From Promethearchaeota archaeon (GTDB lineage Archaea > Asgardarchaeota > Lokiarchaeia > Sigyniarchaeales > SOKP01): a stretch of DNA of 43,104 nucleotides. The stretch covers positions 1-43,104 of the forward strand of contig JABCSY010000026.1 in the NCBI GenBank assembly GCA_018238625.1, in the 5' to 3' direction. Both the position numbers and the translations under genes were made by a program. Below, one piece after another: positions 6,342-28,266 of this stretch. Below the pieces are notes generated by a model, which was not told where the DNA came from, searched no databases, and saw only the letters and a list, made by a program, of their open reading frames with translations. Position 1 is the first letter of the stretch; every line of letters starts with the position of its first letter.

Positions 6342-7268
6342 ATGAGTACTGAATTTAATATTGGTTTTGATTATTCCCACAAAAACAAGTTAATAATAGA
6401 AGATCCTGGATTTAATGACTTTATTGAGTTTCTATTTAATTCAGATTTAAAACTGGGAAAAATTGAAGCGGGAATTACCTACGAAAAATTATCTGCTTAT
6501 AATGTATTTATTATTGGTGTTCCAATTGCTGAATCATATCTAACTCCGGAAGAGATTGAGGGTTTATTGAAGTACGTTAAAGATGGAGGGTCTCTTTTAA
6601 TTATCAACGATAAAGGAGGAGACTATGACAATAAAAATAATTTATCCGAGCTAACAAAACATTTTGGAATCAAATTCAACCACGATCAGCTATTTGATAA
6701 CGAAGATTTTTCGAAAGATAATTCGCGTCCAATAATTAAACAATTCAAAAAACACTTTATAACTCGAGATATAACTCAAATTATTCATTCTGTTGGCTGT
6801 ACTTTAGAGGTTGATAAATCAGTTGAAAATGAAGATATTGATGTTAGCGCAGTCGCACTCTCATCTGAGGAATCTGCTTGGCACAAATATTTTGATGGAG
6901 AAGAATGGGTTGATGAACCTGTTAAAAGCTTACCAATAATCGCTATCGGACATTATGGCATGGGAAAAACCGTAGCTATAGGGAACTTGTCTCTTTTTTC
7001 TGGCTTCCACGATTCATACGGTATTCACGCTGCTGACAACTTCAAATTAATATCTAACGTAATCTCTTGGCTTATGAACAAAGCTCATTCTCAAGAAGCG
7101 CAATTATCGCAACCCATATACACGGCTATCCCCATTGAACAAGATTTATATTATTGGATAAAAGAAAAACTCGACGAAGGACGATGGAACACCGTAGAAG
7201 AAATCGTTAACTTTGCGCTTAAAGTAGTTAAATTTAGAATGAGAAAGCAAGATCCTCAAGAAGAATAG
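6342..7268 (+). CDS. GIFT/DUF4350-like (class I glutamine amidotransferase-like) domain protein with C-terminal ribbon-helix-helix-like segment
   Basis: EEIEGLLKYVKDGGSLLII, NLSELTKHFGIKF, GMGKTVAIGN and DNFKLISNVISWL fit the GIFT/IFT52/GldG fold. C-terminus IYTAIPIEQDLYYWIKEKLDEGRWNTVEEIVNFAL resembles CopG/RHH. Confidence 0.7.
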   Translation: MSTEFNIGFDYSHKNKLIIEDPGFNDFIEFLFNSDLKLGKIEAGITYEKLSAYNVFIIGVPIAESYLTPEEIEGLLKYVKDGGSLLIINDKGGDYDNKNNLSELTKHFGIKFNHDQLFDNEDFSKDNSRPIIKQFKKHFITRDITQIIHSVGCTLEVDKSVENEDIDVSAVALSSEESAWHKYFDGEEWVDEPVKSLPIIAIGHYGMGKTVAIGNLSLFSGFHDSYGIHAADNFKLISNVISWLMNKAHSQEAQLSQPIYTAIPIEQDLYYWIKEKLDEGRWNTVEEIVNFALKVVKFRMRKQDPQEE

Positions 7269-7940: not shown

Positions 7941-8646
7941 TTATGGGCTTTCCATAGCTTTACCACTCAATTTCTTGTAGTGGTTAAGCACAGCTTGTCT
8001 GGCAGCATATACAAACGCTCTTTTTACGTTAACTCCCGTAATAGCGATAGTTTCGTAAATCAAGGTGTGGTCCATCTTGGCGGTATCTAAAACTTGTCTA
8101 ATTTTTGATATCTCGACGATGTCTTCAAGATCTCTCTTGTTGGCTAACACTACCAGAGGTACTTCTGGTGGGTCAAATGGGGCTGGTGGAATTAACTTAT
8201 CACCGTAAAACTTCAATAGCTCTTTTAAAGACCATATATTCTCTCCCCAGTTATCCCTATGCTCGGAATTCGAGAAAGGATTGATCGATGAGAGAATCAA
8301 AAGTGAAGATTACGGCATCGGTACCCTTCAGAACGGTCTGGCGTTGAAATTTGTGTCTGCGCTGGCCAGCAACAGTATATACTTGAAAAACTACATTAGA
8401 TACTCTTGCAACTACCCGATCAAAAAACAAAGTTCGTCCAGTAGGGTCTTGGATTTGCTGCATTAAATGGAAGATTCAAAAATTAGAATCTTCTGTCACC
8501 TGAAGCTAAACCCTCTCTATGATAGACCCATTCTAAAGCCGTTGTTTTACCACCTAAGCTTGGCCCGTAGAAGCAGATTGACTTTTCTGGCTCGAACTGA
8601 ACCCAGACTTAAAGACCAAGGTTCCGTCACCTCTACGTGATGGCAT
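7941..8646 (-). CDS. MglA-family small GTPase, 204 aa after removal of three BHB introns; exons 8646-8609, 8579-8495, 8463-8281, 8249-7941
   Basis: Spliced product MPSRRGDGTLVFKICFYGPSLGGKTTALEWVYHREGLASGDMQQIQDPTGRTLFFDR...YTVAGQ...LKGTDAVIFTFDSLIDQWGENIWSLKEL...LANKRDL...ETIAITGVNV carries intact MglA-type G1 (GPSLGGKTT), RTLFFD, G3 (TVAGQ), G4 (NKRD) and G5 motifs. RBS GAGGTG at 8660-8655. Confidence 0.9.
8250..8280 (-). other. Relaxed BHB-type intron 3 (31 nt) in GTPase gene
   Basis: mRNA UUCUCUCAUC-GAUC-AA^U-CCU..CUCG(aauuc)CGAG..AGG-GAUA-AC^U-GGGGAGAGAA: central helix 3/4 paired, long exon-exon outer helix. Removal gives LIDQ-WGEN. Confidence 0.8.
8464..8494 (-). other. BHB-type intron 2 (31 nt) in GTPase gene
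   Basis: mRNA GCUUCA-GGUG-AC^A-GAAGAUUC(uaauuuuu)GAAUCUUC-CAUU-UA^A-UGCAGC: perfect 8-bp inner stem, central helix GGUG/CAUU with 2 GU pairs, two 3-nt bulges. Removal gives ASGD-MQQIQ. Confidence 0.85.
8580..8608 (-). other. BHB-type intron 1 (29 nt) in GTPase gene
   Basis: mRNA GGU-CUUU-AA^G-UCUGG...CCAGA-AAAG-UC^A-AUC: Watson-Crick 4-bp central helix CUUU/AAAG, two 3-nt bulges, inner hairpin. Removal gives VFK-ICFYG. Confidence 0.85.
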
Positions 8647-8669
8647 TCATGTTTCACCTCTATAATTAC

Positions 8670-9135: not shown

Positions 9136-9144
9136 CGAATCTCT

Positions 9145-9392
9145 TTAGTAAAAGGGGTTATGATATTGAGTATTTTCTTGAGAATATATGGTTCTTTCCT
9201 TAATTTCCTTATCGATCAATCCTCCGCGTTTATTCAAGCGAGAAGTTCTCCCTATTCGATGGATATAATTCTCTGGGAACTTTGAAATGTCGTAATTGAA
9301 AACATGCGAAAAATTATTGATATCCAAACCTCTAGCTGCAACATCTGTGGCAATGAGTAGGTTAATCTTATGTGCTTAAAAGCTTTTAAAAT
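9145..9392 (-). pseudogene. Diverged duplicate of the 3' end of the DEAD-box helicase gene (23364-23669)
   Basis: Nucleotide match by eye to 23364-23669 ([11 protein letters not shown]...[10 protein letters not shown]...[10 protein letters not shown]), with an internal ~54-nt deletion and scattered substitutions. Confidence 0.9.
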
Positions 9393-9600
9393 CCAATTGA
9401 AATATGCCTCGTCCTGAATGCTTCCCGGATATATCTCGTGTATTATAGAAAGTCTACCATCTTGAGTACAAAAAAGGCTTATCCCTACAAGGTTAAGGGT
9501 AAATCGCCCCTCCTTGGAATGGCCGTTGTTAGGAAGCTCCATATCGCGTTTAGGATTGATATAAGTGAAAAAATTGGTGGGATCGTAGAATAAATCTAAA
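9393..9600 (-). mobile_element. IS1634-family transposase fragment
   Basis: Minus strand LFYDPTNFFTYI...GHSKEGRFTLNLVGISLFCTQDG...HEIYPGSIQD matches the IS1634 D-x-T / GHSK / PGN-x-x-D pattern; truncated. Confidence 0.75.
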
Positions 9601-9775
9601 AGCTATTCTTTTAAAAATTTCTTAAAATCAAAATAAATAAAAACCTAAAGTGATATAAAACTATAAATAAAAAGGATTAAGGTTTTAAATTTTAAATATT
9701 ATATTAGATTTGTTTTGTCAATTTAGATAATTTATTTATCAATTATTATTGATAATCATTAAAATTGAGTTAAAA

Positions 9776-11758
9776 ATGGATAAAATCAATAGAGTGAGAA
9801 ATCAAAATATGAAAGAAGTGGCAAATACCTTATTTACATTTATAAAATTGGCTAATTTTCCAGTAACAATTCTAGACTGTAACGGAATCTATTACTTTTG
9901 CAATGAGAAAGCAGCTGAGATAATGGGTAAAAGTGTGAATGAAATCATAGGACATAACTATCGCTCTTTTCACACCCCAAAAGAAATAGAGGATATCACC
10001 ATACTAATAGAGAGGTTAAAACATTCAAAAGAGATTTTTCAATTTAAGAAGAGTTACAATGAAAAAACGTTAATTGTATCTTTTTATCCAATCTTAAATA
10101 AGGAAGGTAATGTTGAAAAAATAGTTACAACTTCTCGTGATATCACCAAATACAAAGGAATAGAAAAAAAATTAAGTAACACAAAAGTAGATTTAAAGAA
10201 GTTAAATACAGAATTAGAGCAAAAGATAGAGAAAAGGATTAATAGTTTAAAAATATCAGAAGAAAAATTCAGAATTCTATTCGAGAATTTGGTGGTAAAT
10301 ATAGTAATTTTTGATTATAATGGAGTATGTCAATTAATTAATAAAAAAGCAGCTGAATATTTAGGTTCTTCACCTAAAAGTATCATAGGCAAATCATTAT
10401 GTGATATATTACCTAAAAAAGCAGCAGAGCGATATTTAAAACGGATTCAGAGAGTATATGATTCAAATATTGGCGTTGTCTCTGAAGATACTCTTGAAAT
10501 GCCTTGGGGTAGGAGAACCTTTTTGATTAATGAACAACCATTAAGAAATCAAAATAATGTCATCACAGGTGTAATAAGTGCAAGTATTGATATTTCAGAT
10601 AGAAAAAATTCAGAACTCATATTAAAAGAATCAGAAAGAAGATTTAAACAGATGGCTGAAATTTCATTAGTAGGTATCACAATTATACAAGATAATAAAA
10701 TAATGTTTATAAATCAAAAAAGTAGAGATATATTAGAGATACCAGATTTAAAATTGGAAGCCCCATATGATGAAATAGTTAGGGATATGCTTGCTAAAGA
10801 AGATCAAAAAAGATTTCTAGAATATATATCAAAAAGACAAAAAGAGGAGACAGATACTCCAAATCTTTACTCTACAAAAATCTATTCCTATTCAGGGCAT
10901 TTAAAATGTGTAGAGGTTTATGCCCAATCAATATCGTATTATAATAAACCCGCATTTTTTATATCATTTATAGATAATACAAAATTAAAAAAATATGAAA
11001 AAGAATTAGAAGAAATAAATATCAACCTTGAGCAAAAAGTAGAAGCGAGGACTAAAGAACTTAAAGAAACACAGCAGAAGCTAATACGTAAGGAAAAATT
11101 AACTACAATTGGAAAACTAGCAGGGGGAATTGCGCATGAACTTCGAAATCCTCTTGGAGTTATCAGTAACTCTATTTACTTTTTAAATATGAAGATTGAT
11201 AATAAAGAAGTGAAAGTAATAAAACATTTAAATATAATAAAACACGAATTAAATATTTGTAACCAAATCATTTCTGATCTCCTCAATTTTACTAAAACTA
11301 AAAGGCCTAACTTTAGTAAAGTAAATATCAATAATGCAATTAACGATTTAATAAATAATATGGAAATTCCTAAAAACATTGATATTGAAAAAAAATTCGC
11401 TCTTGAAATACCAGATCTTTTTGTAGATCAAAGGCAAATTCAACAAGCATTTCAAAACCTTATACTGAATGCGTTTCAAGCAATGCCTTTAGGAGGTATT
11501 CTTGAGATTAAAACATATAAAGAAGAAAATATGGTTAATATTTCATTTAAAGACACAGGTGAGGGGATTTTAAATAAGAATCTGAAGAAAATTTTTGAAC
11601 CACTTTTTACAACAAAAGCAAAAGGCTTTGGTTTAGGTTTATCAATTGTAAAAGATATTATTACCAGTCATAATGGAACGATTGACGTTGAAAGTAAAAT
11701 TGATACGGGTTCAACTATTATAGTTAAATTACCTATCCTTAAAAGTGAGGATGCATAA
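9776..11758 (+). CDS. Multi-PAS sensor histidine kinase
   Basis: Three PAS/PAC-like repeats, H-box AHELRNPL, N-box NLILNA, DTGEG, FTTK, GFGLGL. ATG 9776 in frame with ORF start 9749. Confidence 0.93.
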   Translation: MDKINRVRNQNMKEVANTLFTFIKLANFPVTILDCNGIYYFCNEKAAEIMGKSVNEIIGHNYRSFHTPKEIEDITILIERLKHSKEIFQFKKSYNEKTLIVSFYPILNKEGNVEKIVTTSRDITKYKGIEKKLSNTKVDLKKLNTELEQKIEKRINSLKISEEKFRILFENLVVNIVIFDYNGVCQLINKKAAEYLGSSPKSIIGKSLCDILPKKAAERYLKRIQRVYDSNIGVVSEDTLEMPWGRRTFLINEQPLRNQNNVITGVISASIDISDRKNSELILKESERRFKQMAEISLVGITIIQDNKIMFINQKSRDILEIPDLKLEAPYDEIVRDMLAKEDQKRFLEYISKRQKEETDTPNLYSTKIYSYSGHLKCVEVYAQSISYYNKPAFFISFIDNTKLKKYEKELEEININLEQKVEARTKELKETQQKLIRKEKLTTIGKLAGGIAHELRNPLGVISNSIYFLNMKIDNKEVKVIKHLNIIKHELNICNQIISDLLNFTKTKRPNFSKVNINNAINDLINNMEIPKNIDIEKKFALEIPDLFVDQRQIQQAFQNLILNAFQAMPLGGILEIKTYKEENMVNISFKDTGEGILNKNLKKIFEPLFTTKAKGFGLGLSIVKDIITSHNGTIDVESKIDTGSTIIVKLPILKSEDA

Positions 11759-12505
11759 ATGGAGGAACTGATTAAAGTTTTAATTGTTGATGATAATGTT
11801 GAAATGTGTGATACCATATCAGATATCTTGATTGAAAAAAATTATAGTGTATCAACAGTGAATACTGGCTATAAAGCGATTGAATTAATTGAAAAAATTA
11901 ATTTTGATATTATTATACTAGATATTTTAATGCCAGGAATCAATGGTGTTATAACTTTTAAAAAAATCAAACAAATAAATCCTTTAGCTAAAGTAATAAT
12001 GATGACAGCATACCCTCTTGATAAGCTTATAGATATAGCATTAGATGAAGGAGTTTTTGGGATTATATATAAACCGTTTAGTATGGAAAAATTCCTGAAA
12101 ATTATCAGTATTCTTAGTAAGGAACGTCTTGCAATGTTTATAAATGGTGATATAATATTCCATGATACATTTAAGGAGGTGTTAGATAGAATGAATTTTA
12201 AAATAATTATTAGTCATTGTGATTTAAATTCATTAGACAATCTAAAAGAAATTAATATTGATCTAATTTTCATAGATGTGAAGATGCCAAAATTGAAGTA
12301 TAGGGAGATATATAATTTAATAAAAAAAATGGATTACGAAATTCCAGTTGTTTGCATTACAGAATATCGAGTTGAAATGAAAAGATCAGTAGAAGAAGCA
12401 TTTAAGAATAATGTACATGGATACCTTTATAAGCCTTTTAAAATGGAAGATGTGTTTCGAATTATTAGGGCCTTCTACAGTTATGAATTAATGCAAATAA
12501 ATTAG
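11759..12505 (+). CDS. Tandem receiver-domain response regulator
   Basis: REC1: VDDN...DILMP...KPF. REC2 is degenerate at the acidic pocket but has DVKMP...KPF. Confidence 0.9.
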   Translation: MEELIKVLIVDDNVEMCDTISDILIEKNYSVSTVNTGYKAIELIEKINFDIIILDILMPGINGVITFKKIKQINPLAKVIMMTAYPLDKLIDIALDEGVFGIIYKPFSMEKFLKIISILSKERLAMFINGDIIFHDTFKEVLDRMNFKIIISHCDLNSLDNLKEINIDLIFIDVKMPKLKYREIYNLIKKMDYEIPVVCITEYRVEMKRSVEEAFKNNVHGYLYKPFKMEDVFRIIRAFYSYELMQIN

Positions 12506-12518
12506 TATAATACAAATC

Positions 12519-14756
12519 ATGAAAGAATTGAAAGAAAGCCTAAAAATTTTAGTTGTTGATGATGACGATTTAATATGCCAAACATTAAATGATATTTTTG
12601 AGGAGAAAGGGTATTATGTCGAAGTTGCGACGAATGGTCAGATCGCAAAAGAAAAAACAAATCAGATTCCTTTCGCCATCTTTTTAATCGATTTAAAATT
12701 ACCTGATACCAATGGTATTGATCTCATAAAGGATCTTAAAGAAATTAGACCAAGCGGGATATATTTTATCGTTACTGGATATTCTTCCATTCAAAATGTA
12801 TCTAAAGCTATAAAAGATGGTGTCGATGGTTACTTCGTAAAACCACTTGTAATCGAAGAGATTGAAAAAAGAATTATGGATTTATCAGAAAAACGTGAAA
12901 TACAAATACAATTAGAAAATTCTGAACAAAAATATCGCCTAATCTCTGAAAATGTAAATGATTTAATTGTAGTTATTAATGATAAAATTGAAGTTGAATA
13001 TGTTAATGAAATAGCACTCAAGAATATGTTTGGTTATTCACGAGATGAAGTTATTGGACGTTCTGGATTTGATTTTATCAATATTGACGGTTATGAACCA
13101 ACCATAGAAGGTTTAAATAAAGCTTATAGTGAAAGTGATGGGGCATTAGAATTTAAAGCTCACCATAAAGATGGCCATGAAATTTGGATTGCAACGCTTG
13201 GAAAATCTTTTATTAATGAAAAGGCTGAACCTAAAACATTACTTGTTATAAGAGAAATTACAAAGCGAAAATCTATCGAATTAAAATTAAAAGAATCAGA
13301 AATAAAATATCGACATTTATTTGAGAACTCTCCTTTTATAAACACCTTAATTGATACTTCAGGTACAGTTGTTGATATTAATTCATTAATGTTAAAAAAA
13401 TATGGATACCAAAAAGCAGATTTTTTAAACAAAAATTTTTCAGAATTTAAAAACTTTCCTTCAGAAACTTATTCTACTCTTAAAAATATATTTAAAGACG
13501 TTTTTAAAAAAGGTCAAAGTGAACCTAAAGAGATTTTATTTTTTAACAAAAATGGAAGTAAAACATGGGTTTCTATACAAGCAAATCTCATACAAATTGG
13601 TGGGGCGAACTATATCCAAGCAATAACTCAAGATATTAATAAAAGTAAAGAAGACGAGCAAAAGTTAGAAGAATCTGAAAATCGTTTCAGAACTATTACA
13701 GAACAATCATTCATGGGAATTATTATTGTGCAAAATAGTGTTGTTATTTATGCAAATAAAAAAGCTACTAATATTCTTGAACTTAGTTTAAATGAGTTAG
13801 CACAATTACCCAAATATGAAATCTTTAATATTTTAAATCTCCCCAAAGAGTTTGGAATTTCACAAAATCCTTTAATTAGTTTTAAGTTCTCAACAAAAAT
13901 AAATAAAATATCGACAAAAACAAAATGGATAGAGCTTTACATGAAAAGTGTGAATTTTAAAGGGAAGTCAGCAGATTTAATCACATTACTTGATATTACA
14001 AAAAAAAAAGAAGCAGAAAAGATTATTTTAGAAGAAAACAAAAAATTACTCGAATTGAATAAACTCAAGGATGAATTAAACATTAGAATTTCACATGAAT
14101 TAAAAACGCCATTAAACTCTATCTGTAGTGCTTCTAGACTCCTTTTAAAGATATTAAATAATAAAATAGGTGAGGAAGCCCAAGAGCTTTTAGAATTAAT
14201 TGAAAAAGGAGGAGATCGATTAGAAAAATTAGTAATTGATTTACTTAATGTGTCAAAAATAGAATCTGATCAATTTTATCTAAATATAAATACAGTAAAT
14301 ATAGGAGAATTAATAAGAGAAAGTATTGTTGATGTATCTCCTTTACTGGAAGAGAGAGAACAAGTCTTAAATGTGGAAAATATCCAAGATTTAACTATAA
14401 ATATTGATAGAGAAAGAATAAAAGAAACAGTTGAAAATTTATTAATAAATTCAATAAAAAATACTCCTTTAAAAGGTACAATTACAATAAAATTAAAAGA
14501 ATTTAATCTTTTTATTGAAATTCAGATATCTGATACAGGAATTGGTTTTACCAATAAAGAAAAAGAAAGGGTTTTTACAAAATTTGGAAAAATCGAAAGA
14601 TATGGACAAGGGTTTGAGATCAATACGGAAGGCTCAGGATTAGGATTATATTTATCAAAGAAATATGTTAAAAAGCATGGAGGAAAATTATTGCTTGAAT
14701 CAGATGGAAGAAATAGGGGATCAACATTTTTTATTAGGTTACCAAAAATTCCGTAA
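12519..14756 (+). CDS. Hybrid REC-PAS-PAS-PAS histidine kinase
   Basis: N-terminal REC (VDDD, DLKLPD, KP), PAS repeats, SHELKTPL, DTGIG, GSGLGL. Confidence 0.93.
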   Translation: MKELKESLKILVVDDDDLICQTLNDIFEEKGYYVEVATNGQIAKEKTNQIPFAIFLIDLKLPDTNGIDLIKDLKEIRPSGIYFIVTGYSSIQNVSKAIKDGVDGYFVKPLVIEEIEKRIMDLSEKREIQIQLENSEQKYRLISENVNDLIVVINDKIEVEYVNEIALKNMFGYSRDEVIGRSGFDFINIDGYEPTIEGLNKAYSESDGALEFKAHHKDGHEIWIATLGKSFINEKAEPKTLLVIREITKRKSIELKLKESEIKYRHLFENSPFINTLIDTSGTVVDINSLMLKKYGYQKADFLNKNFSEFKNFPSETYSTLKNIFKDVFKKGQSEPKEILFFNKNGSKTWVSIQANLIQIGGANYIQAITQDINKSKEDEQKLEESENRFRTITEQSFMGIIIVQNSVVIYANKKATNILELSLNELAQLPKYEIFNILNLPKEFGISQNPLISFKFSTKINKISTKTKWIELYMKSVNFKGKSADLITLLDITKKKEAEKIILEENKKLLELNKLKDELNIRISHELKTPLNSICSASRLLLKILNNKIGEEAQELLELIEKGGDRLEKLVIDLLNVSKIESDQFYLNINTVNIGELIRESIVDVSPLLEEREQVLNVENIQDLTINIDRERIKETVENLLINSIKNTPLKGTITIKLKEFNLFIEIQISDTGIGFTNKEKERVFTKFGKIERYGQGFEINTEGSGLGLYLSKKYVKKHGGKLLLESDGRNRGSTFFIRLPKIP

Positions 14757-14786
14757 AAAACTAAATGAATAGCTAAATAAAAATAA

Positions 14787-15626
14787 TTAGAAATTTTCAA
14801 ATAGTTTATCCAATTTTTCAAATTTAAATGGTTTTAAAAAATATCCATCTGCTCCAGTTTCTTCCAACCGATTATTTACTCTTTCTTCTGGTATTGCTGT
14901 TATGAAATAAATAGGGATTTTACGATATTTTTCAATAGATTTAAGTTTTTTACACATCTCGAATCCATCTATATCAGGCAAAATGATATCTAATAATATT
15001 AATTTAGGAAAACTTTGTTCTATTTCCCTTAATCCTTTATTTCCAGAAGTAACCCCTTTACAAGTTATACCTTTTATCCTTAAATAACTATTTAAAATTG
15101 AAATCGTTGCAGGATCGTCATCAATAATCAAAATATCATAATCAGACTTAGTAGTTTCCACAGGACAAAATATTTCATTTATTTTTTCTTCCAGATCAAG
15201 ACTATATGAATATATTTCCTGTATTTTTGCTAATACAGATGGATCAAGACTATTTTCATTATTTTCTAATAATAAATGAGTAAATCCTTGAATAGCTGTT
15301 AAAGGTTCCTTTAAACTGTGAGATATATCAATAAAATCTCTATATTTGCTAGTTTTAGAGAGATAGTTAGCGTAAAAATTCACAGATTCGATGATAAATT
15401 TGGTTAGTGTAATATCCTTTTCTTTAGCAAAATTCTTCCATTGAGTCTTTACATCTTCGCTAACAAGAAGTCCTATTCCTTTTTTATCTTTACCATATAT
15501 TTTCTTATTGTCTTTCCAATTTTTGAAACTTTCAGTAATTTCTCCATGCCAAATAGCTTGTTTTCCGGTTTCTTCTTCAAATCTTTTCATTTCTTCCTTC
15601 TTTTCAACATCAGTCATGATAATCAC
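14787..15626 (-). CDS. Response regulator with N-terminal RHH-like segment, HisKA-like (DHp) helix pair and C-terminal REC
   Basis: IGLLVSEDVKTQWKNFAKEKDITLTKFIIESV (RHH-like), ISHSLKEPLTAIQG (H-box), IDDD...DIILPD...KPF (REC); no ATPase domain. Confidence 0.8.
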   Translation of the reverse strand: MIIMTDVEKKEEMKRFEEETGKQAIWHGEITESFKNWKDNKKIYGKDKKGIGLLVSEDVKTQWKNFAKEKDITLTKFIIESVNFYANYLSKTSKYRDFIDISHSLKEPLTAIQGFTHLLLENNENSLDPSVLAKIQEIYSYSLDLEEKINEIFCPVETTKSDYDILIIDDDPATISILNSYLRIKGITCKGVTSGNKGLREIEQSFPKLILLDIILPDIDGFEMCKKLKSIEKYRKIPIYFITAIPEERVNNRLEETGADGYFLKPFKFEKLDKLFENF

Positions 15627-15827
15627 ATCACTCTATTATAACTACTTTAATTATAAATAGAAATTCAATACTATTTTTCATAAAATTCCTTTTTTAACTA
15701 AATTTTTAATTAATTAACATCTTTTTTTGATTATATTAGAATAAAAATTAATTATTTAATTTCTTATATAAATTTATTTAACTTAAATAAAAATTTTTAG
15801 GATAATTAAAATGAATTAATAAAGAAA

Positions 15828-17330
15828 TTACATCTCAAATAATTCTCTTATTTTAATTGAAGCTTTATTAACCAAATTTAAACGTATTAAATCGATATCC
15901 CCATCTATTGTATTGTATTTTTGCTTTAAAAAGTCCAACTTCTCTGATATGTTATCAAAAACCCAAGATATTCCTGAACCTCTTCTTGAATCATAAAAGT
16001 CTCTTTTAAGATCTTTTAAAATCTTTTTTATAATTTTTTTACTTAATACTTGTTTTTTCACGGGGATATTAGAATTACTCTCGTTATAATAAGCTAAAAG
16101 TATAAAATTTCTTTCATAGTTCTTAATTTCGATATTTCTTAACAAAAATTCTCCATTTAATGAAGAAAGTTTGAAGTATTCTAGTTCATTTAAGCTTAAA
16201 CTTTGTACTGTCCTTAATACCGTTGTACATACTAAAGAAAACATTGCTCCTACTGCCAAAGAATCTAATTCTGTTTTAGAATATTCTGAAATTATCATTC
16301 CCTGGCCATCAATTAAAAAACTTGATTGAAAATCACCCTGAAATAATAATTCTTCAAGAATGTCTTTTAAAACATCTACTTTACCTTTCTCCATCTGTTT
16401 AAAATCTTCATCCTCCAGATATGGATCAATAGGTAAACTATTAATTGACTTGGTGATATTATTCTTATTTGATCTAACCCCAAATTCATCAGCACTTTTA
16501 GTAAATTTCTTAATATTCTTATTAAGAGATTCTTCTATCTCTTTAAGCTTGTTCTCTTTAAGAATTAACTCTTTTTGGTTCTTTTTTAAATACTGATCTC
16601 GTTTATTTAACTCAGCTTTTTTCTCTTCTAATTCATTACTCAACACTTTAAAAGTATTTCTAGCATTTTCAAGTTTTTCTCCACGTTTTTTATATTCTTC
16701 TCTACTTTCTTCTAATTTAATAAAACGATTCTGATAATCTTGTTTTATTTCTTCTGCTATTATTGATTGTTTTTCGAAATCTTCAATTTTTTCTTCATAA
16801 ATTGCTTTCATGTTCTCTAAGTCTTCGATTTTTTTCGAATATTCTTCTAATATAACACTGAAATCTTCTTTTATCACCTGATCTTTATCTATTTCCTCTT
16901 TATATTCATTTTGATTAATAATTAAATCCTTTTTTTGTTCTTTATCCTTTTTATTATTAAAAATTTCTTCCTCTAAGATCATTTCTTCAAAAGTTTCATC
17001 AAGTATTTCTCTAACTTCAGGACTTATATCTTCTTCAAGATATAGTTTTTCCTTTTCTTGCGTGATGTTAGATATAAGCGTATCGCTTTTAGGCATATTC
17101 TTATTAAAATTCACATCCTCCTTACTACTCTCTTCATTTTGAACAAGATTAAGATTCGGTAATGAATTACTTGAGATCATTTCTCCAAATATATTATCAA
17201 AAATCTCTTTAACTTCAGGACTAATATCTTCTTCTGCGTAAAATCTCTCTTTCTCTCTTAATATTTCTAAATCCTGAGAATTATCACTATTCTGATTATA
17301 TTCTTGTTTTTTCTTTTCCTTATCAATCAT
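15828..17330 (-). CDS. Acidic repeat / coiled-coil protein with C-terminal roadblock domain
   Basis: Two EKE..Y.EEDISPEV.EI.D..F.EMI repeats, long heptad region, then SSFLIDGQGMIISEY...LAVGAMFS (roadblock/MglB). Confidence 0.75.
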   Translation of the reverse strand: MIDKEKKKQEYNQNSDNSQDLEILREKERFYAEEDISPEVKEIFDNIFGEMISSNSLPNLNLVQNEESSKEDVNFNKNMPKSDTLISNITQEKEKLYLEEDISPEVREILDETFEEMILEEEIFNNKKDKEQKKDLIINQNEYKEEIDKDQVIKEDFSVILEEYSKKIEDLENMKAIYEEKIEDFEKQSIIAEEIKQDYQNRFIKLEESREEYKKRGEKLENARNTFKVLSNELEEKKAELNKRDQYLKKNQKELILKENKLKEIEESLNKNIKKFTKSADEFGVRSNKNNITKSINSLPIDPYLEDEDFKQMEKGKVDVLKDILEELLFQGDFQSSFLIDGQGMIISEYSKTELDSLAVGAMFSLVCTTVLRTVQSLSLNELEYFKLSSLNGEFLLRNIEIKNYERNFILLAYYNESNSNIPVKKQVLSKKIIKKILKDLKRDFYDSRRGSGISWVFDNISEKLDFLKQKYNTIDGDIDLIRLNLVNKASIKIRELFEM

Positions 17331-17374
17331 TTCTTTTAAAGCACCTTATTTCTCTTAATTTTATTATTATTAAT

Positions 17375-17830
17375 TTAGGTTAAAGAACCCAGGTCAGAAA
17401 AGAAAGCTTTAGACGTATCTTTCTTTACAAGATTTCTAATTTTTTTAATAATTTTGCTAGTTTCATATTGAATTAATCCCATATTTGTAGTCTTTGGAAA
17501 AATAATTAATAAAAGAACATTTGAGTATACTCTTGAAATCATAATAGTAAAATCTGCATCACTATTTTCGTTAAACCCAGCATCAATCTTTATTTGTTCA
17601 AGTATTTTATTAACGTTAATAATTTCTATCCCCCTTTCTGCCATTGACAAAATACTTGCTGAAATTGCAGCAAAATTTTGTGTTATTTCATCATCTTCAT
17701 CGTTCTCACTATTATTTACAATAATTAATCCATCTTCAGTAATTAAACTTGCTCTAACAATTCTCAAATCTTTTTTTAGTGTATCCAATAATTGAACCAG
17801 GCTCTCTCTTATATCTGACACTTTTTTCAC
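17375..17830 (-). CDS. Roadblock/LC7 (MglB-like) protein
   Basis: ASLITEDGLIIV, FAAISASILSMAE, NMGLI. Confidence 0.85.
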   Translation of the reverse strand: MKKVSDIRESLVQLLDTLKKDLRIVRASLITEDGLIIVNNSENDEDDEITQNFAAISASILSMAERGIEIINVNKILEQIKIDAGFNENSDADFTIMISRVYSNVLLLIIFPKTTNMGLIQYETSKIIKKIRNLVKKDTSKAFFSDLGSLT

Positions 17831-17921
17831 CTTTTTTTTTTTAATTAATTTTTTTAAATTTTCTTAAAATAAAATTTATTTTTTTAAATTTTTTAAAATA
17901 GAAAAAAAATAATTCAAGGTT

Positions 17922-18287
17922 TTATCCAAGAACTAATTTAACTCTATCTAATGCCATATTGATTTCAAAATCTATTAATCCAATTTTAGCGTCTGAGGGT
18001 GCTAATGCAATTAATACTGCTTGACTTAATTGATGTAAGATTATTAATTTATCATTTCCCGTTATAATAATTGAACCCGTTTTACCTGATTGCAAAGTAC
18101 TTGCAACTCTATTACCAACTGAAGTTAGAGCTGCAGTCATCGCAGCTAACCCTTTTTCATCTACATCACTATGTAAAGCACTAGCCATCATTTGTCCTTT
18201 TAATGAAACTAAAGCACTATTATTAACTTCACAGTTTTTTTCTAATTCTTTTAAGATAGATTTAATTTTATCAATTTTTGCGCTCAT
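17922..18287 (-). CDS. Roadblock/LC7 (MglB-like) protein
   Basis: SALVSLKGQMMASAL, LAAMTAAL, AKIGLI. Confidence 0.9.
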   Translation of the reverse strand: MSAKIDKIKSILKELEKNCEVNNSALVSLKGQMMASALHSDVDEKGLAAMTAALTSVGNRVASTLQSGKTGSIIITGNDKLIILHQLSQAVLIALAPSDAKIGLIDFEINMALDRVKLVLG

Positions 18288-18518
18288 TTTATAATACCTC
18301 CTTTTTTAAAAATAATTTTTTAGTTAATAGTAAATTTTTTTATGTTAATATAGTAATTAAGTCTGATTATATAAATATATCTATTTTTTATAAAAAAACC
18401 CTTTTCTCTTAAATATTTTATTAAAGGAAATATGATATATTTAAATATAAGTTAGTTTTTATATAAATTAATAAAAAAACTTCTTTATTAATATATAATT
18501 TTGAGGTTATTATATTAA

Positions 18519-19160
18519 ATGGAAAAAAATAAATTTAAAATTTTTATTACTGGATTTTTTAATGCTGGGAAAACAACTTTAATTCATACTCTAGATGATA
18601 AAGCTATATCTGTAGAGACGAAACTAGCAGAAGAATATGAACCAGGAAAAACTCATACTACAACTGGTTTTGATTTAGGAAGGCTTGTTTGGGTAAGACC
18701 AAATTTAAATTTCGATACAGAAGGTGTTTTAATGAGTAAATCTGAATATTTTCGAGATAAAAAGGAATATTCTGGATGGCATATTATTAATGTTGAGTTA
18801 AAAGGGAGCCCTGGTCAGATACAATTTAAAGCTGTACGTCATATTCTAGGAAGAGGAAGTGATGGTGTCATTTTATTAATTGATGGATGTGATTTAGCTA
18901 ATATTGGAAACGCTTTAGTAATAAGAGAAGAAATAACTACTAATCTTGGAAAAAACATCCCCTTAAATATTATAGCAAATAAGGCAGATAGAGAGGATTA
19001 TTATGGAAATGAGATGATTTCTGATTTGATAGGCGAGGAAGTATATAAAGGATCTGTTTTGGATAATATTGGAATTAAAGATGCTATAATAAATACCCTT
19101 AAAATAATTGTTAATAAATCAAATGATAATTTTAACTTAAAAGGTAAGGTGGTTGCCTAA
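18519..19160 (+). CDS. Small GTPase (CvnD/ATP_bind_1/MglA-related)
   Basis: GFFNAGKTT, KTHTTTGFDLGR, GSPGQ, NKAD. Confidence 0.85.
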   Translation: MEKNKFKIFITGFFNAGKTTLIHTLDDKAISVETKLAEEYEPGKTHTTTGFDLGRLVWVRPNLNFDTEGVLMSKSEYFRDKKEYSGWHIINVELKGSPGQIQFKAVRHILGRGSDGVILLIDGCDLANIGNALVIREEITTNLGKNIPLNIIANKADREDYYGNEMISDLIGEEVYKGSVLDNIGIKDAIINTLKIIVNKSNDNFNLKGKVVA

Positions 19161-19611
19161 TATGGATATATCTATAGAAAATCAAATAAAAAAACTTTTA
19201 AAACCATTTAGAATTAGAACAGGGGTAACAACTTCTTTCTTATTTAATAACGATGGCTTAATAATAGCAATTGATCAAGAATCATTAAGCGAAGATGAAG
19301 ATTTTTATCAATCGATAAGTGCGATATGTGCTGGTATAATATCATTTGCAGAACAAGGAATATTGATGACAGATAGCTCAAATAATGTTAAAGATATAGT
19401 AATTCAGGGGGGTAATCAAATAGAGAGTGATAGTTTTACAATAACAATTGACTTTATTAGTAATGAAATAATTTTTGCCTGTATTTTTCCTTCAGTTTTG
19501 AATTATAGTGTAATTAAGTTTGAATTGAAGAATACAACTCAATCATTAATTAAGTTATTTAATAATGATAATATGAGTAAGAATGCCTCAATACAACAAA
19601 TTAAAACATAA
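19153..19611 (+). CDS. Roadblock/LC7 (MglB-like) protein
   Basis: SFLFNNDGLIIA, ISAICAGIISFAE; resembles the 17375 paralog and overlaps the GTPase stop. Confidence 0.8.
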   Translation: MPNMDISIENQIKKLLKPFRIRTGVTTSFLFNNDGLIIAIDQESLSEDEDFYQSISAICAGIISFAEQGILMTDSSNNVKDIVIQGGNQIESDSFTITIDFISNEIIFACIFPSVLNYSVIKFELKNTTQSLIKLFNNDNMSKNASIQQIKT

Positions 19612-19629
19612 ACACATACATTAAATAAG

Positions 19630-20532
19630 GTGATTGAAATTATTGAGATAAAAAAGGATGTATTATATGGATTAAATTCATGCCCAGAATGTCAAGGGAA
19701 CTTAATTTCGGTAGTTGAAAGAGGAGAGACCGTTTGCTATCAATGTGGTTTAATTATAAGCGAAAAAGAATTAGCTCTCAATCACAGTGGTCCAAGAATA
19801 TATACAGCTGAACAATCTAGAGAAAAAGCAAGAACAGGGAGTCCAACGTCTCAATTATTTCCAGATATAAGTTTTTGTGTGATACATAATAATAATACTC
19901 AAAATCCCCATTTAAAACGTGCAATAAAACTTAATTCCTATATCCCTTGGGATAAAAAAAAAAAATTAATTGCTATTATAGAATTGAAAAGGTTAAGTCA
20001 CAATTTAGGTATACCTGAATATATTAAAAAAGCTACTTTAGAGCTTTATGAAGAAGCAGTTAATAGAAACATGATTAAAGGAAGATCAATAAAAGGAATG
20101 ATTATTGCATGTTTATTTTATGTTTGTAAAATTAAAAAAATACCAAGAACTTTCCAAGAAATTTGTATGGAATCATCAATTGCTCCAAAGAAATTAAAAA
20201 AATATTATCTCAATTTGGTCAAAGAATTAAATCTAAAGACTCCCATTAATAATCCAATTGCTAATGTTACTAGATTTATAGCTAATCTAGGATTAGATTT
20301 TGATACAGAAAAATTAACTATTAAAATATTAGAAGAATATTTCAAAAATAGTTCTACTGGTGGAAAAAACCCAAATGGTTTTTGCGGAGCCGCAATTTAC
20401 TTAGCATCAAAATTAAGAAATAAAAGGATAAATCAGAAAGTCATTGCCAATATTATTGGAATTACTGATACAACACTTCGAAACAGATATCACGAGATTA
20501 TTAATAAAATAAATTTTAATAATATTAGATAA
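19630..20532 (+). CDS. tfb: Transcription initiation factor IIB (TFB) paralog
   Basis: Zn ribbon CPEC...CYQCG, RTGSP, IKGRSI, IPRTFQEI, GKNPNGFCGAAIY, TLRNRY; two cyclin repeats. Confidence 0.93.
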   Translation: MIEIIEIKKDVLYGLNSCPECQGNLISVVERGETVCYQCGLIISEKELALNHSGPRIYTAEQSREKARTGSPTSQLFPDISFCVIHNNNTQNPHLKRAIKLNSYIPWDKKKKLIAIIELKRLSHNLGIPEYIKKATLELYEEAVNRNMIKGRSIKGMIIACLFYVCKIKKIPRTFQEICMESSIAPKKLKKYYLNLVKELNLKTPINNPIANVTRFIANLGLDFDTEKLTIKILEEYFKNSSTGGKNPNGFCGAAIYLASKLRNKRINQKVIANIIGITDTTLRNRYHEIINKINFNNIR

Positions 20533-20545
20533 AGAGGAGATTACA

Positions 20546-22042
20546 ATTATTAAGAACGAATTTGAAAAAACTCAAATTTTTAATTTTTATAAAATAAATG
20601 AAATAAAAAATAAGAAGTCCTATCTAAATTTGTTAGATAGCTTCCCTTTTTCAATATTTATATTACAATTTGATATGACAGTATATTTTTGCAATCATGT
20701 AGCAGAATTATATTTAGGCGTATTAAATAGCAAGGTTCAAGGTAACTCTTTTTTCAATCTTTTTCCATTTTCGGCTAATAAAAAAGAAGAAGTTAAGGAA
20801 ATAATAAATAATGTAATGTTGATTAATTATTCTGAAGTAAACGAATTAGATTTTATTAATCAAAATGGTTGTAAAACATGGGTTGAGATGTTTTTCTCTA
20901 GAATAAATATTGAGGGGAATAACTTTATTCAAGTAGTTTTATTAGATATAACAGAGAGCAAGCTAGCAGATATTATAATAAAAGAGGAAAATGAAAGATT
21001 GAGATCACTCAATGAATTAAAAAAGAATTTAACTGCTAAGACTTCTGAAGAATTGAAAAACCCTTTAAATGTTATGTCAAAGGCATCTCATTTACTTCTA
21101 GAAACATATAAAGATAAATTGGATGAAAATGCAATTAGATTATTAGAACTAATTAATAATGGAGGAGAGACATCTTTGAATTTGGCTAGTAAAATTGTAG
21201 ATATTTCCAGAATAGAATCAAACGAATTAATTCTAAATAAACAAACTGAAAATTTAGTCGAAATTATAAAAAACTCTTTAAGAACAGTTTTGCATAATAA
21301 TAACCAATATAATTCTTTCATTGATTTAGATTTATCTGAAGATGTTTATTCATTTATTGATAGATCACGAATAGAGCAGGTATTAAAAGAAATATTAACC
21401 TATATAATTTTAAATACAAATAATGATAGCAATCTTTCAATTAGCCTTCAAAAAGTTAGGAACTTTGGAGAAATTCTGATAAAAACACAGTTTAATTTAG
21501 GTTTAGAGAATAAAATGGACTACCAATTTCATTTTATAAAAGAAATAATTGAATTACATCATGGTCAAATGCTTATAGAATCATTAAACGGGCTATATAA
21601 ATCATCAATAAAAATTCTTCTACCCATAAAAAATTGGAAGGATAAGGTAATTCAACTTTTAGTATTATATAAATATGGTATTCCTCTATTTGACTACTCA
21701 TTTAGTAACCATTCTACTAATAGTAATGACTCTATAATAGTATCAGGAGGGATTGTCGGATTAATGACTATTTTAAAAGTGATAACTCATGGAAAATCTC
21801 CAATAAAATATATAAATCATGGAGATTGTACAATCATTTTTGAATTAAATAAATCAAGGGATATTATTTTTGTTTTGATTGTGAAAGAGCATTTAAAAAT
21901 ATTTGAATACACACTTGGCAATTTAATTAATGAATTTGATGTGATCTATAAGGATTTAGTTAAGAATATAGAAACAAGTTGTTCAGCTAGGCAAAATTGG
22001 GAAGAAGTGGGGTTATTAGTTGAAAAATATTTTAAAAACTGA
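20546..22042 (+). CDS. PAS - degenerate histidine kinase - longin-like fusion protein
   Basis: PAS domain; H-box reads TSEELKNPL (His to Glu); ATPase lacks N/G boxes; C-terminal YKYGIPLFDY...IVSGGIVGL...INHGD..IIFE...IFVLIV...EF...Y is longin-like. Frame is open upstream of TTG 20630 to ATT codons after a GAGGAG RBS, so the start is uncertain. Confidence 0.75.
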   Translation: MIKNEFEKTQIFNFYKINEIKNKKSYLNLLDSFPFSIFILQFDMTVYFCNHVAELYLGVLNSKVQGNSFFNLFPFSANKKEEVKEIINNVMLINYSEVNELDFINQNGCKTWVEMFFSRINIEGNNFIQVVLLDITESKLADIIIKEENERLRSLNELKKNLTAKTSEELKNPLNVMSKASHLLLETYKDKLDENAIRLLELINNGGETSLNLASKIVDISRIESNELILNKQTENLVEIIKNSLRTVLHNNNQYNSFIDLDLSEDVYSFIDRSRIEQVLKEILTYIILNTNNDSNLSISLQKVRNFGEILIKTQFNLGLENKMDYQFHFIKEIIELHHGQMLIESLNGLYKSSIKILLPIKNWKDKVIQLLVLYKYGIPLFDYSFSNHSTNSNDSIIVSGGIVGLMTILKVITHGKSPIKYINHGDCTIIFELNKSRDIIFVLIVKEHLKIFEYTLGNLINEFDVIYKDLVKNIETSCSARQNWEEVGLLVEKYFKN

Positions 22043-22261
22043 TATTACTTTATAGAAGAATCTTATTTTTTTTTCATATCTTTAATAAATTTCAATAAAT
22101 ATAATTTTTAAATCTTATTTATTTAATTTTTTAATTATTTCTATGTAAATTTATATAAAAAACAGAAGGCTTAAATATAAGATTTTGACAAAAAGGATGT
22201 TTATATATATAAATATTATTATTTATTTAAAAAATAAAAAATAATAAAAAATAAAAAAGGA

Positions 22262-22774
22262 GTGATAATTATGCAAGAAATAATAGGACAATTTCTAATA
22301 ATGCTTATTAAACTATTTAAGGAGTTTAATGAAGAATTTCTCGAGCAAGCTGCTAAGGAACTAAATATGAGACCAGAGGATATTAAGCCAGATGGCTGGT
22401 ATCCCGTTGATAAAACTATTATCGCCTTAGAGAAATTAAGTGATGATGCAAATCAAGGTGTTGGAAAATTAGTAGTTGCTTCGAATCCAGATGTTATTAA
22501 GGCGTTGAAACCTGATTCAACCCCTAAGGATTTAACCTCTATATTAAAGACTAATATTTCCAAAAGTTTTAAAGGAGAAAATATATTTTCATTAATGACA
22601 ATTGTAGATTCTGGTCCTGATTCTCTCGTAATAAAAACTAAAATGTATCCATTTACTGAAAGTTTTGTTAAAGGTCTTATTTTAGGCTTTTTACAAATCT
22701 TAAAAATCCAAAATATCCATATTGTTAAAACAGATGAAGATGGTTTTCAAATATTTACCATAAAATGGCAATAA
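22262..22774 (+). CDS. Hypothetical protein, V4R/H-NOX-like small-ligand-binding fold
   Basis: PDGWYP motif, YP...FVKGLILG and terminal FTIKW, as seen in V4R/H-NOX-like proteins. Confidence 0.5.
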   Translation: MIIMQEIIGQFLIMLIKLFKEFNEEFLEQAAKELNMRPEDIKPDGWYPVDKTIIALEKLSDDANQGVGKLVVASNPDVIKALKPDSTPKDLTSILKTNISKSFKGENIFSLMTIVDSGPDSLVIKTKMYPFTESFVKGLILGFLQILKIQNIHIVKTDEDGFQIFTIKWQ

Positions 22775-22879
22775 TTAATTTTTAATCTTTTTTTTATATT
22801 ATTTTTTCAGTGCTAATTTTTTTATAGTAATTATGCTTAAATTATATTTAGTTATTACTAGCCATTCAATTCAAGATTT

Positions 22880-23200
22880 AATTTTGGTTCTCCCCACATG
22901 TGGATGAAACCTGAAAGAAAAATTGGCAGGATGGTGACTGAGTTGAAACTCTCATAGAGCATTAGGCCGCCATAAAATGGTAAGCCTCGAGAATAAACCT
23001 GGATAAGACTCAGAGAAGCTGTCTAATGGGCTTGTAATAACTCTCCCTTAATTTTAGGGTGTCAGCTAAACATATCGGATTAGGAGAGTTCAGAGAGACA
23101 CATTATAACCAATAATGGATTATATTTAGCTAGAGTTTTGTCAATTTTTTAAGGTTTCCTTATCAGTAACATCATGAAAAAAAGTTCCTATGCTCTGAAA
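22880..23200 (+). mobile_element. Possible degraded DDE transposase remnant
   Basis: GC-richer patch; FRVSAKHIGLGEFR...GLYLARVL across a frameshift resembles a transposase C-terminal (F)R..K..LGL..F motif. Confidence 0.35.
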
Positions 23201-23363
23201 CGAATTTTAATTCGTTGAGGATTCTTTCTTTAAATTCTTATTTTTAAGAAATAAATAATATTTTCAGAATATAATTATTAAAAACCTTAGTATCATTTGA
23301 CATACTTTTTATTTAGCCTGAAACTAAAATATAAAACAATTCTATATAACAATCTGTTTAATG

Positions 23364-26803: not shown

Positions 26804-27005
26804 TTTTTATCTTCTCTTCAGTTGTTTTTTATAATAACTATCCGTAGAAAATAAATTAAACTTATCTATAGAAAAATACCAATATTCTAAATAGAGTAGA
26901 AATATTTATATTAAGTATTGGAATTTATAATAATGTTCAAAATTATCTAACTAAGATTACTTAACCAAAATTGACAAAAAAAAAAATAAAAAAAATGTTT
27001 TTAAC

Positions 27006-27863: not shown

Positions 27864-27870
27864 GTCTTTC

Positions 27871-28266
27871 ATGAGTCAGAGAATTCCTATTATTAAAATA
27901 CGCGAAAATTTAATAGTAACTTTTATCTCTGATATCGACGATTTAGCAGCCTTAAGATTACAAAAAGAATTGACTGAAATGATTCATGAAGAAAATATCT
28001 CTGGAGTAAATGTAACTGGAGTTTTGTTAGATCTGACAATTCTAGATATGGTGGATTCTTTCTTAGGAAGGCTAATATCGAATATCGCACAATCTGCGGC
28101 AACCATGAATGCTAATACGGTTGTTGTTGGAATTCAGCCGGCTGTTGCCATTACTCTCGTCGAAATGGGGCTACAACTGAAGGGTGCCTATACTGCTTTG
28201 AATGTGGATCATGCTTTTGAAATATTAGATGATTTAAAAGCAGAATCGGAGGAGATTGTTGAATAA
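27871..28266 (+). CDS. rsbS: Stressosome RsbS STAS protein
   Basis: IPIIKI, DMVDSFLGR, VGIQPAVAITLVEMG. Confidence 0.92.
   Translation: MSQRIPIIKIRENLIVTFISDIDDLAALRLQKELTEMIHEENISGVNVTGVLLDLTILDMVDSFLGRLISNIAQSAATMNANTVVVGIQPAVAITLVEMGLQLKGAYTALNVDHAFEILDDLKAESEEIVE

Follow-up and report, generated by a model that had tools for sequence, protein, structure and literature searches.

A small GTPase gene of an Asgard archaeon interrupted by three putative tRNA-type micro-introns

We describe a protein-coding gene of a Promethearchaeota archaeon that appears to depend on tRNA-type splicing of its message. The gene lies in a 43,104-nt stretch of DNA (positions 1 to 43,104 of contig JABCSY010000026.1, assembly GCA_018238625.1; hereafter the window) and is predicted to encode a small GTPase of the MglA family. 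Three inserts of 29, 31, and 31 nt break its reading frame, and each can be folded into a form of the bulge-helix-bulge (BHB) motif cut by the archaeal tRNA-splicing endonuclease EndA. Introns of this type are very rare in archaeal protein genes, and the GTPase message is most likely cut and rejoined by the tRNA-splicing enzymes. A first-pass annotation, made from the letters alone, had proposed a multi-intron, EndA-spliced mRNA in a probable Asgard archaeon; the sequence tests reported below support this proposal, and it is from them that we infer splicing itself.

Results

Joining four exons restores a conserved GTPase frame

Open reading frame (ORF) calling with translation table 11 saw the gene (Table 1) solely as pieces in different frames, and its unspliced RNA would encode a 30-residue peptide (ORF 8554-8646). 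Joining the four exons (38 + 85 + 183 + 309 nt) yielded a 615-nt stop-free frame of 204 amino acids followed by TAA, which reproduced the previously annotated coordinates and exon sizes exactly. Exon 4 alone, searched against longer proteins only, gave 308 matches, of which the best 120 were nearly all 204–206 aa in length and were labelled by their sources as Lokiarchaeota/Promethearchaeota and other Asgard groups. The joined product aligned without gaps to 19 intact homologs (204–206 aa) chosen from these best 120 of 308, with all three junctions falling within invariant stretches of the alignment (VFKICFYG, ASGDMQQI, and LIDQWGEN); the exon 1 segment MPSRRGDGTLVF is the same in intact orthologs.

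The joined product contains the G1, G3, and G4 motifs of small GTPases (GPSLGGKT, TVAGQ, and NKRD, respectively); in the G3 motif of MglA, Thr stands in place of Asp. Its closest solved structures were MglA chains (E 1.5e-22 to 6.4e-21), followed by Rab7 (5e-9), and Pfam gave weak Arf/Ras matches. On these similarities we identify the predicted product as an MglA-family small GTPase, the label that it had been given at the outset.

When the window was globally aligned to the syntenic DNA of three sister species (genomes G016, G020, and G028, ~92% identical), it contained exactly three extra segments of 29, 31, and 31 nt. Comparison with intronless orthologs, by which the annotation was to be checked, hence placed the gaps exactly at the predicted segments. 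No further frame-breaking micro-insertions were found inside genes in the ~23 kb of the window that aligns to relatives. Independent DNA also contains such inserts: a 224-nt contig (8172-8395) from X2, a DNA run of a different study, runs uninterrupted through intron 3 with two differences, and inserts at the window's own sites are present in the independent assemblies G019 (nt 38 of the coding sequence, CDS), G011 (nt 123), and G018 (nt 306), as well as in metagenome locus L202 (nt 123). A contig from another run, X16, which joins exon 3 to exon 4, was rejected as a splice product: it differs at 10 of 304 bases and has the Trp-Ser variant of intronless relatives. This contig is the intronless gene of a relative, and the run is probably DNA.

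Predicted cut sites agree with protein homology

We modelled each insert with an outer helix followed by a 4-bp helix (H), then a 3-nt bulge and an inner helix, and with the same elements in reverse order on the 3' side; cuts were placed between the second and third nucleotides of each bulge (Table 1). Protein homology leaves 1 nt open at every intron of the window, allowing two junction registers, and in three of three introns one of the two coincided with the BHB cut. Fisher combination of the register ranks of the three introns gave p = 2.3e-4, in keeping with the earlier statement that three such junctions were unlikely to arise by chance. The geometry claimed for all three, a 4-bp helix between two opposed 3-nt bulges, held for introns 1 and 2 with complete pairing, while intron 3 fits it in relaxed form, with three of four pairs. 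Inner and outer flanking helices were present in all three introns (5/3, 8/2, and 3/2 bp for introns 1–3). Minimum free energy (MFE) folding of inserts with 14-nt flanks returned, for most of them, both the hairpin and the central helix, with z-scores from +0.20 to -3.40.

Related inserts across the genus

To place these inserts in a wider context, we surveyed orthologs in 42 genomes of the genus, including G000, the metagenome-assembled draft that holds the window (201 contigs, 98% complete, 7.6% contamination). The ortholog was uninterrupted in 22 genomes, interrupted in six (G000, G011, G018, G019, G032, and G063; 6/29 of the genomes holding the gene), and cut by a contig end in one (G029); the remaining 13 had no ortholog-level match. 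In G029 the contig starts with ...CAA|TGG, so that site 306 is intronless in this genome; its assembly lacks the 5' part of the gene.

The six interrupted genes carry 11 inserts of 29–32 nt at eight sites (Table 1), four of them in the single gene of G011. The BHB-predicted cuts were among the 1–4 registers allowed by homology for all 11 inserts. At the homology-consistent register, H was fully paired (4/4) in nine inserts and paired at three of four positions in two, against a background of 82 fully paired registers out of 3168 (2.6%; P(≥9/11) = 2e-10). Fisher combination of rank tests gave 1.4e-7 for the 11 inserts, and 1.2e-6 when one insert per site was used. In a metagenome set of 80 loci kept from 165 relatives, two loci had in-frame 30-nt inserts (L184 at site 70 and L202 at site 123), both with H 4/4, which brings the inserts of the GTPase gene to 13, 11 of them with complete H.

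Pairing was maintained by compensatory changes at three sites. In the exon/intron helix of site 123, GGTG/CATT of the window corresponds to GGCG/CGTT in L202, and in that of site 70, GAGG/CCTT of G032 corresponds to GCGG/CCGT in L184. The hairpin of site 306 differs by two compensatory pairs, with CTCG/CGAG in the window against CTTA/TAAG in G018. With kin that are non-independent and two to three alleles per site, these changes lend support but do not amount to a formal test of covariation.

On a gene tree of 26 sequences, the interrupted copies were scattered, requiring five changes for six copies. The window's nearest relatives are without all three introns, and the sisters G018 and G063 carry different introns. 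This scatter suggests that intron gains, losses, or both have been recent and frequent in the genus.

As for the 13 genomes without an ortholog-level match, a search in eight of them (five by protein, five by intronless-CDS DNA, two in both) recovered paralogs or noise only. Several of the 13 are 98–99% complete, and one, G026, has a fragment of 25 identical residues at the edge of a contig. In these genomes the otherwise very conserved gene may be missing, left out of the assembly, or too fragmented to be recognised.

Selection on the exons

The ratio pN/pS was 0.05–0.12 in 12 of 12 pairs of spliced or intact CDS, far from the dN/dS near 1 that the first-pass annotation had named as telling against itself. 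On the window's terminal branch we counted 33 synonymous single-site changes, seven more in Ser/Arg/Leu codon switches, and no amino-acid replacement; the two residues that differ between the window's GTPase and that of G028 are both changes specific to G028. There was no second copy of the ortholog in G000, where other matches were ≤38% identical. From these substitution patterns, the exons are judged to be under strong purifying selection.

tRNA introns and splicing enzymes of the same genome

We calibrated the cut rule on the tRNA genes of G000. ARAGORN found only 19 of these, 11 of them intron-bearing, and most tRNA genes of this genome are probably too interrupted for recognition. The low count fits reports, in the available parts of PMC11291895 and of preprint 10.64898/2026.10.13.758758, that Asgard tRNA genes are heavily interrupted and overlooked by standard tools. 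Applied to the 11 intron-bearing calls, the BHB cut rule gave exact boundaries for three tRNA-Thr genes and, for one tRNA-Ser, the called length at a position shifted by 2 nt. These 4/11 calls were the clean cases, with introns of 19–23 nt; the remaining seven were poor or non-canonical. The rule proposed from the three GTPase introns is therefore one that matches both their homology-allowed junctions and tRNA introns of the same genome.

EndA and RtcB had been assumed as the processing enzymes, and genes for two EndA subunits (on contigs C58 and C7) and for RtcB are indeed present in G000. The two EndA-family ORFs (200 and 201 aa; PF01974, 97.7 and 73.8 bits; both above the TIGR00324 cut-off) differ in their alignments, one matching the catalytic repeat of fused EndA models and the second the N-terminal repeat and, weakly, beta-subunit models. 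RtcB was recognised by PF01139 (556.8 bits). The Asgard EndA is described, in the part of PMC5829648 available to us, as being of (alpha-beta)2 type with an L1 loop linked to broad specificity.

Inserts in other genes and junction context

A homology-based census took 1.01 Mb of G028, of which 618 kb aligned to G000. It contained 150 indels of at least 10 nt with good flanks, 27 of them in an open-frame context and eight of these not a multiple of three in length. Two of the eight frame-breaking indels are clear BHB micro-introns in other genes (Table 1). One lies in the acyl-CoA dehydratase activase gene of G000, where excision restores ...FQMNDK|CAAGTGRF... and the G028 ortholog is intact. 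The other splits the P-loop of aIF2-gamma, an essential gene, in the only such locus found in G028 (92% complete); the G000 ortholog is intact. We also noted a second, partial aIF2-gamma-like piece in G000 at a contig edge (C165:1-258), beside the intact gene on C106, which may reflect strain heterogeneity or contamination (7.6% for this genome).

Several further candidates were not accepted: a 19-nt insert in G000 (C165:2026), in a poorly conserved region and with no BHB; a 47-nt insert in G028 (L066:18923), with a doubtful low-complexity frame; and several in-frame indels of 12–39 nt in repeat-rich proteins, which look ordinary.

With a single case in each genome, the census density of roughly one intron per 0.6 Mb per genome is a lower bound, because multi-intron genes with short exons escape it: censuses by breaks between high-scoring segment pairs (HSPs), by gaps within HSPs, and by tiling all missed introns 1 and 2 of the window, where the exons are short. 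Even so, three introns in 615 nt and eight occupied sites in the genus mark the GTPase gene as an intron hot spot.

Junction context was tabulated for 13 inserts, comprising the 11 in the GTPase gene and the two in other genes. In 13/13 the exon has A two bases ahead of the 5' cut; AA preceded the cut in 9/13, compared with a dinucleotide frequency of 0.14 (p = 7e-6); and the downstream exon started with A in 10/13. The two metagenome inserts (L184 and L202) likewise have A two bases before the cut. This bias could reflect a preference of EndA or one of the insertion site, and it may explain the hits in the GGN-AAA-ACN codons of P-loops.

The insert sequences themselves had no second copies in G000: the four tested matched only themselves, other hits being ≤14 nt. 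Origin from a repeated mobile element, similar to a miniature inverted-repeat transposable element, was ruled out by this uniqueness. One reverse-transcriptase-like ORF, a weak one, was found in the genome.

Other features of the window

An Asgard source had been surmised for this DNA, and both the labels of the GTPase homologs and an actin homolog in the window (actin-family protein, 34291-35466, minus strand, PF00022, E 1.2e-49) agree with it. Gyrase genes and a Roadblock/LC7 gene next to another small GTPase are encoded here as well, a gene content consistent with an Asgard archaeon. The gyrB gene (758-2821) of the window is without a segment of ~1.3 kb that its G028 ortholog has extra at window position ~2114-2123 (L034/L035). 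The ends of that segment translate as C-F-S-G-E-T-K-V... and ...V-H-N-S, which we take to be intein-like.

An island of ~14 kb (9393-23363) was absent from 4/4 relatives compared. A diverged ~250-nt repeat of the 3' end of a DEAD-box helicase gene flanks the island (positions 9143-9392 are similar to the beginning of 23364-24515). Among its genes are those for PAS/histidine kinases and response regulators, a TFIIB homolog, and an Arf-like GTPase accompanied by a Roadblock/LC7 gene. The island has the appearance of an integrated element with a duplicated target. A further block (26842-31023), unaligned to any relative compared, encodes RsbR-N/STAS, HATPase, and SpoIIE-like proteins, a module of partner-switching type.

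Table 1. Positions and structures of the interrupted GTPase gene, its insert sites in related genomes, and inserts in two other genes (window positions unless a contig or CDS position is given; a vertical bar marks a predicted cut)
Feature	Position	Strand	Details
GTPase gene	8646-7941	minus	whole locus, ATG 8646-8644 to TAA 7943-7941
Shine-Dalgarno-like motif GAGGTGA	8654..8660	minus	7 nt 5' of ATG; from a reading of the sequence alone
Exon 1	8609..8646	minus	38 nt; codons 1-12 and 2 nt of codon 13
Putative intron 1	8580..8608	minus	29 nt
Intron 1 BHB	H: 8614-8611 (exon) / 8585-8582 (intron)	minus	canonical; H CTTT/AAAG, 4/4; bulges aa|G and TC|a; inner helix 5 bp, TCTGG/CCAGA; outer exon-exon helix 3 bp; rank 1 of 289 registers
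Exon 2	8495..8579	minus	85 nt; P-loop GPSLGGKT
Putative intron 2	8464..8494	minus	31 nt
Intron 2 BHB	H: 8500-8497 (exon)	minus	H GGTG (exon)/CATT (intron), 4/4, two G-U; bulges ac|A and TA|a; inner helix 8 bp, GAAGATTC/GAATCTTC; outer helix 2 bp, mismatch, 3 bp; rank 1 of 289
Exon 3	8281..8463	minus	183 nt; switch regions and G3 motif TVAGQ
Putative intron 3	8250..8280	minus	31 nt
Intron 3 BHB	H: 8286-8283 (exon)	minus	slightly relaxed; H GATC (exon)/GATA, 3/4; bulges aa|T and AC|t; inner helix CCT/AGG (3 bp) and CTCG/CGAG hairpin; rank 2-8 of 289
Intron 3 outer exon-exon helix	8296-8287 with 8248-8239	minus	2 bp, mismatch, 7 bp; read from sequence
Exon 4	7941..8249	minus	309 nt including TAA 7943-7941; G4 motif NKRD and C-terminal half
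Insert site, intron 1 of window	CDS nt 38		G000, G019
Insert site	CDS nt 58		G063
Insert site	CDS nt 70		G032; also metagenome L184
Insert site	CDS nt 103		G011
Insert site, intron 2 of window	CDS nt 123		G000, G011; also metagenome L202; hairpin sequences of G011 and L202 differ from window
Insert site	CDS nt 210		G011
Insert site, intron 3 of window	CDS nt 306		G000, G018 (homologous intron)
Insert site	CDS nt 315		G011
35-nt BHB insert, acyl-CoA dehydratase activase (TIGR00241)	G000:C59:8907-8941	minus	H 4/4; bulges aa|A and AA|a
29-nt BHB insert, aIF2-gamma	L096 (G028:C32) ~7190-7250	minus	H 4/4; in P-loop GHVDHG|KTTL

Discussion

Proposed mechanism and points against it

In the mechanism that we propose, the pre-mRNA would fold around each insert into an outer exon-exon helix, a 3-nt bulge, the 4-bp helix, the opposite 3-nt bulge, and the intron hairpin, the 4-bp helix arising from pairing between the last bases of the exon and the intron's 3' end. 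A heteromeric EndA of alpha-beta type would then cut after the second nucleotide of each of the six bulges, and RtcB would ligate the exons and probably circularise the introns, so that the 204-aa protein would be encoded by the spliced message only. The introns themselves would have been gained or lost recently and in particular lineages, at sites whose junction context is NA|A. We put the probability that the inserts are mRNA introns spliced by EndA and RtcB at roughly 85%, cleavage and ligation being deduced from motif, homology, and gene content.

A number of observations weigh against this reading. Structurally, intron 3 has a G.A mismatch at the outer end of its central helix, several inserts of other species have an outer helix that is weak or absent (HBh'-like), and for intron 1 (z = -0.03) and some other inserts the stability of the MFE fold did not significantly exceed that of shuffled sequences. 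The coverage of X2 reaches intron 3 and not introns 1 and 2; the check for an assembly artefact therefore came out in favour of intron 3 in independent DNA, with introns 1 and 2 outside that coverage. Some of the synonymous divergence on the terminal branch may predate the insertions. Among the runs searched for RNA of the gene (X19, X17, and X16), none gave an RNA contig spanning a junction: X19, which is clearly RNA, gave one 94-nt contig wholly inside exon 4, and X17 gave no contig of the gene.

The genome at large adds a further point of this kind. Other apparent frameshifts had been suggested as places to find BHB motifs, and we scanned G000 for a strict form (outer helix ≥3 bp, H 4/4, inner helix ≥4 bp, length 14–80 nt), obtaining 22,910 hits. 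Combined with an ORF-merging test over the whole genome, the scan gave no excess over controls in which the 3' site was shifted by 1–2 nt; for example, at lengths of 20–45 nt and with at least 60 codons on each side there were 26 hits, compared with 17–30 in controls. With counts no higher than in shifted controls, the BHB motif alone is of little predictive power in this AT-rich genome. The strict scan recovered one of the three window introns, and adjacent genes produce background; it was dropped as a census.

Alternative explanations

A pseudogene, inactivated by three random small insertions while paralogous GTPases cover its function, is very unlikely in our estimation. The gene is broken in the table 11 reading, G000 does have paralogous small GTPases (up to 38% identity), and the 13/42 genomes without an ortholog-level match leave room for a dispensable gene. 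Random inactivation is nevertheless hard to reconcile with three independent inserts that each restore the frame exactly at the BHB-predicted cut, or with 40 nucleotide changes and no amino-acid replacement on the window's terminal branch. Like inserts occur in five other species, with structures kept by compensatory changes, and an insert of the same kind interrupts aIF2-gamma in G028, where the single locus found belongs to an essential gene.

Removal of the inserts from RNA by another nuclease/ligase pair, or by self-cleavage, is conceivable in that the role of EndA and RtcB is itself a prediction from sequence. We consider it highly improbable. The geometry and cut rule are the same as those that reproduce the genome's own tRNA introns, the window had no Rfam match at the gathering threshold (ribozymes and group I/II introns included), and 29–31 nt is too short for known self-splicing introns.

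Programmed translational bypassing, in which the ribosome would jump over inserts retained in the mRNA, has models in gene 60 of phage T4 and in the 27–55-nt 'byp' elements of a yeast mitochondrion. Inserts of 29–32 nt with an internal hairpin resemble such elements. Matching take-off and landing triplets were, however, present in 0/3 inserts (exon 2 ends in GAC and the following insert in TTA; exon 3 ends in CAA and the following insert in AAC), intron 1 interrupts a codon, and bypassing leaves unexplained the conserved 4-bp exon-intron helix with its 3-nt bulges and compensatory changes. We hold this explanation to be barely credible.

An assembly or sequencing artefact, conceivable in a draft assembled from a metagenome (201 contigs, 7.6% contamination) and with X2 reaching intron 3 alone, is practically negligible given that a contig of another study spans this intron and that analogous inserts occur in independent assemblies of other species and in two metagenome contigs.

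Implications

A broader possibility is that the genus has ongoing insertion of tailor-made, EndA-spliceable micro-introns into coding genes at NA|A sites, with turnover fast enough to set sister species apart and with P-loop GTPase genes as hot spots, as seen at the eight sites of the MglA-like gene and in the P-loop of aIF2-gamma in G028. We are evenly divided over whether this holds. If it does, the closest prokaryotic relatives of eukaryotes would already live with multi-intron mRNAs spliced before translation and would be a natural system for catching intron gain into coding genes in progress. Splicing of archaeal coding mRNA by EndA and RtcB rests on essentially one confirmed gene, cbf5, with one intron. 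If our interpretation of the GTPase gene is right, some Asgard archaea would routinely need mRNA splicing for conserved, even essential genes, and gene callers would systematically label such genes as pseudogenes. Very close relatives could then be compared to study how coding sequence gains and loses introns, with a bearing on the origin of split genes and on how RNA processing came to be separated from translation in the lineage closest to eukaryotes.

Comparison with known systems

Non-spliceosomal splicing of mRNA is familiar from HAC1/XBP1 in eukaryotes, where a short intron is removed enzymatically, the exons are joined by a tRNA ligase (RtcB in animals), and the frame is changed. The GTPase gene would share with it mRNA splicing by protein enzymes, joining of the tRNA-ligase type, and an altered reading frame. 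In HAC1/XBP1, however, the endonuclease is IRE1, the substrates are stem-loops rather than BHB motifs, and splicing is a regulated stress response, whereas no regulation is known for the GTPase gene.

Among archaea, a BHB intron in crenarchaeal cbf5 pre-mRNA was reportedly found in work of 2002 and 2006 attributed to Watanabe and to Yoshinari, respectively. According to the available part of PMC7714728, the cbf5 intron was, besides that study's own case in a 5' untranslated region (UTR), the only mRNA BHB intron reported by 2020; other coding-region BHB introns were predicted and are unconfirmed in the accessible text of PMC2738675 (Yokobori 2009). As far as these two sources go, the earlier remark that BHB introns of mRNA are essentially known from cbf5 alone holds true, cbf5 being the sole confirmed coding-region case. 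Full-text literature searches found no paper on BHB introns in Asgard protein genes, or on several such introns in one archaeal gene. In the available text of preprint 10.64898/2026.10.13.758758 the term 'mRNA' occurs 0 times, and the intron passages of PMC11291895 concern tRNA only; neither mentions introns of protein genes there.

The HVO_1309 case of Haloferax volcanii resembles ours in that an mRNA is a substrate of EndA, which the available part of PMC7714728 reports as shown in vivo and in vitro. It differs in having, as described in that part, a single BHB intron in the 5' UTR with the coding frame uninterrupted. A further comparison is with the Asgard tRNA introns treated in the available portions of PMC11291895 and preprint 10.64898/2026.10.13.758758. 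Motif and cut rule are the same, as the tRNA introns of G000 show, and sizes are similar (19–23 nt in the clean tRNA cases of this genome); in both, gains are many, recent, and lineage-specific, with positions reused and no shared intron sequence families. In the GTPase gene, by contrast, the substrate would be an mRNA, the exons are constrained by coding rather than by tRNA structure, and splicing would have to restore the frame and compete with translation.

The nearest counterpart is cbf5 of Crenarchaeota. Within the accessible text of PMC2738675, it too has a short, ORF-less, BHB-bounded intron in its coding sequence, a host with hetero-oligomeric EndA, presence that varies among related species by gain and loss, and a gene misread as frameshifted by annotation pipelines. 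There, splicing was confirmed experimentally, whereas here we infer it from sequence. The cbf5 gene has one intron, whereas the GTPase gene has three and its ortholog in a sister species four; the host there is crenarchaeal and here an Asgard archaeon with a small GTPase gene as the target; and here eight sites are used in a 615-nt gene across one genus, with very rapid turnover. Compared with cbf5, the mechanism would be the same, but it would operate on several introns of one gene, in an Asgard archaeon, with rapid turnover and reuse of sites.

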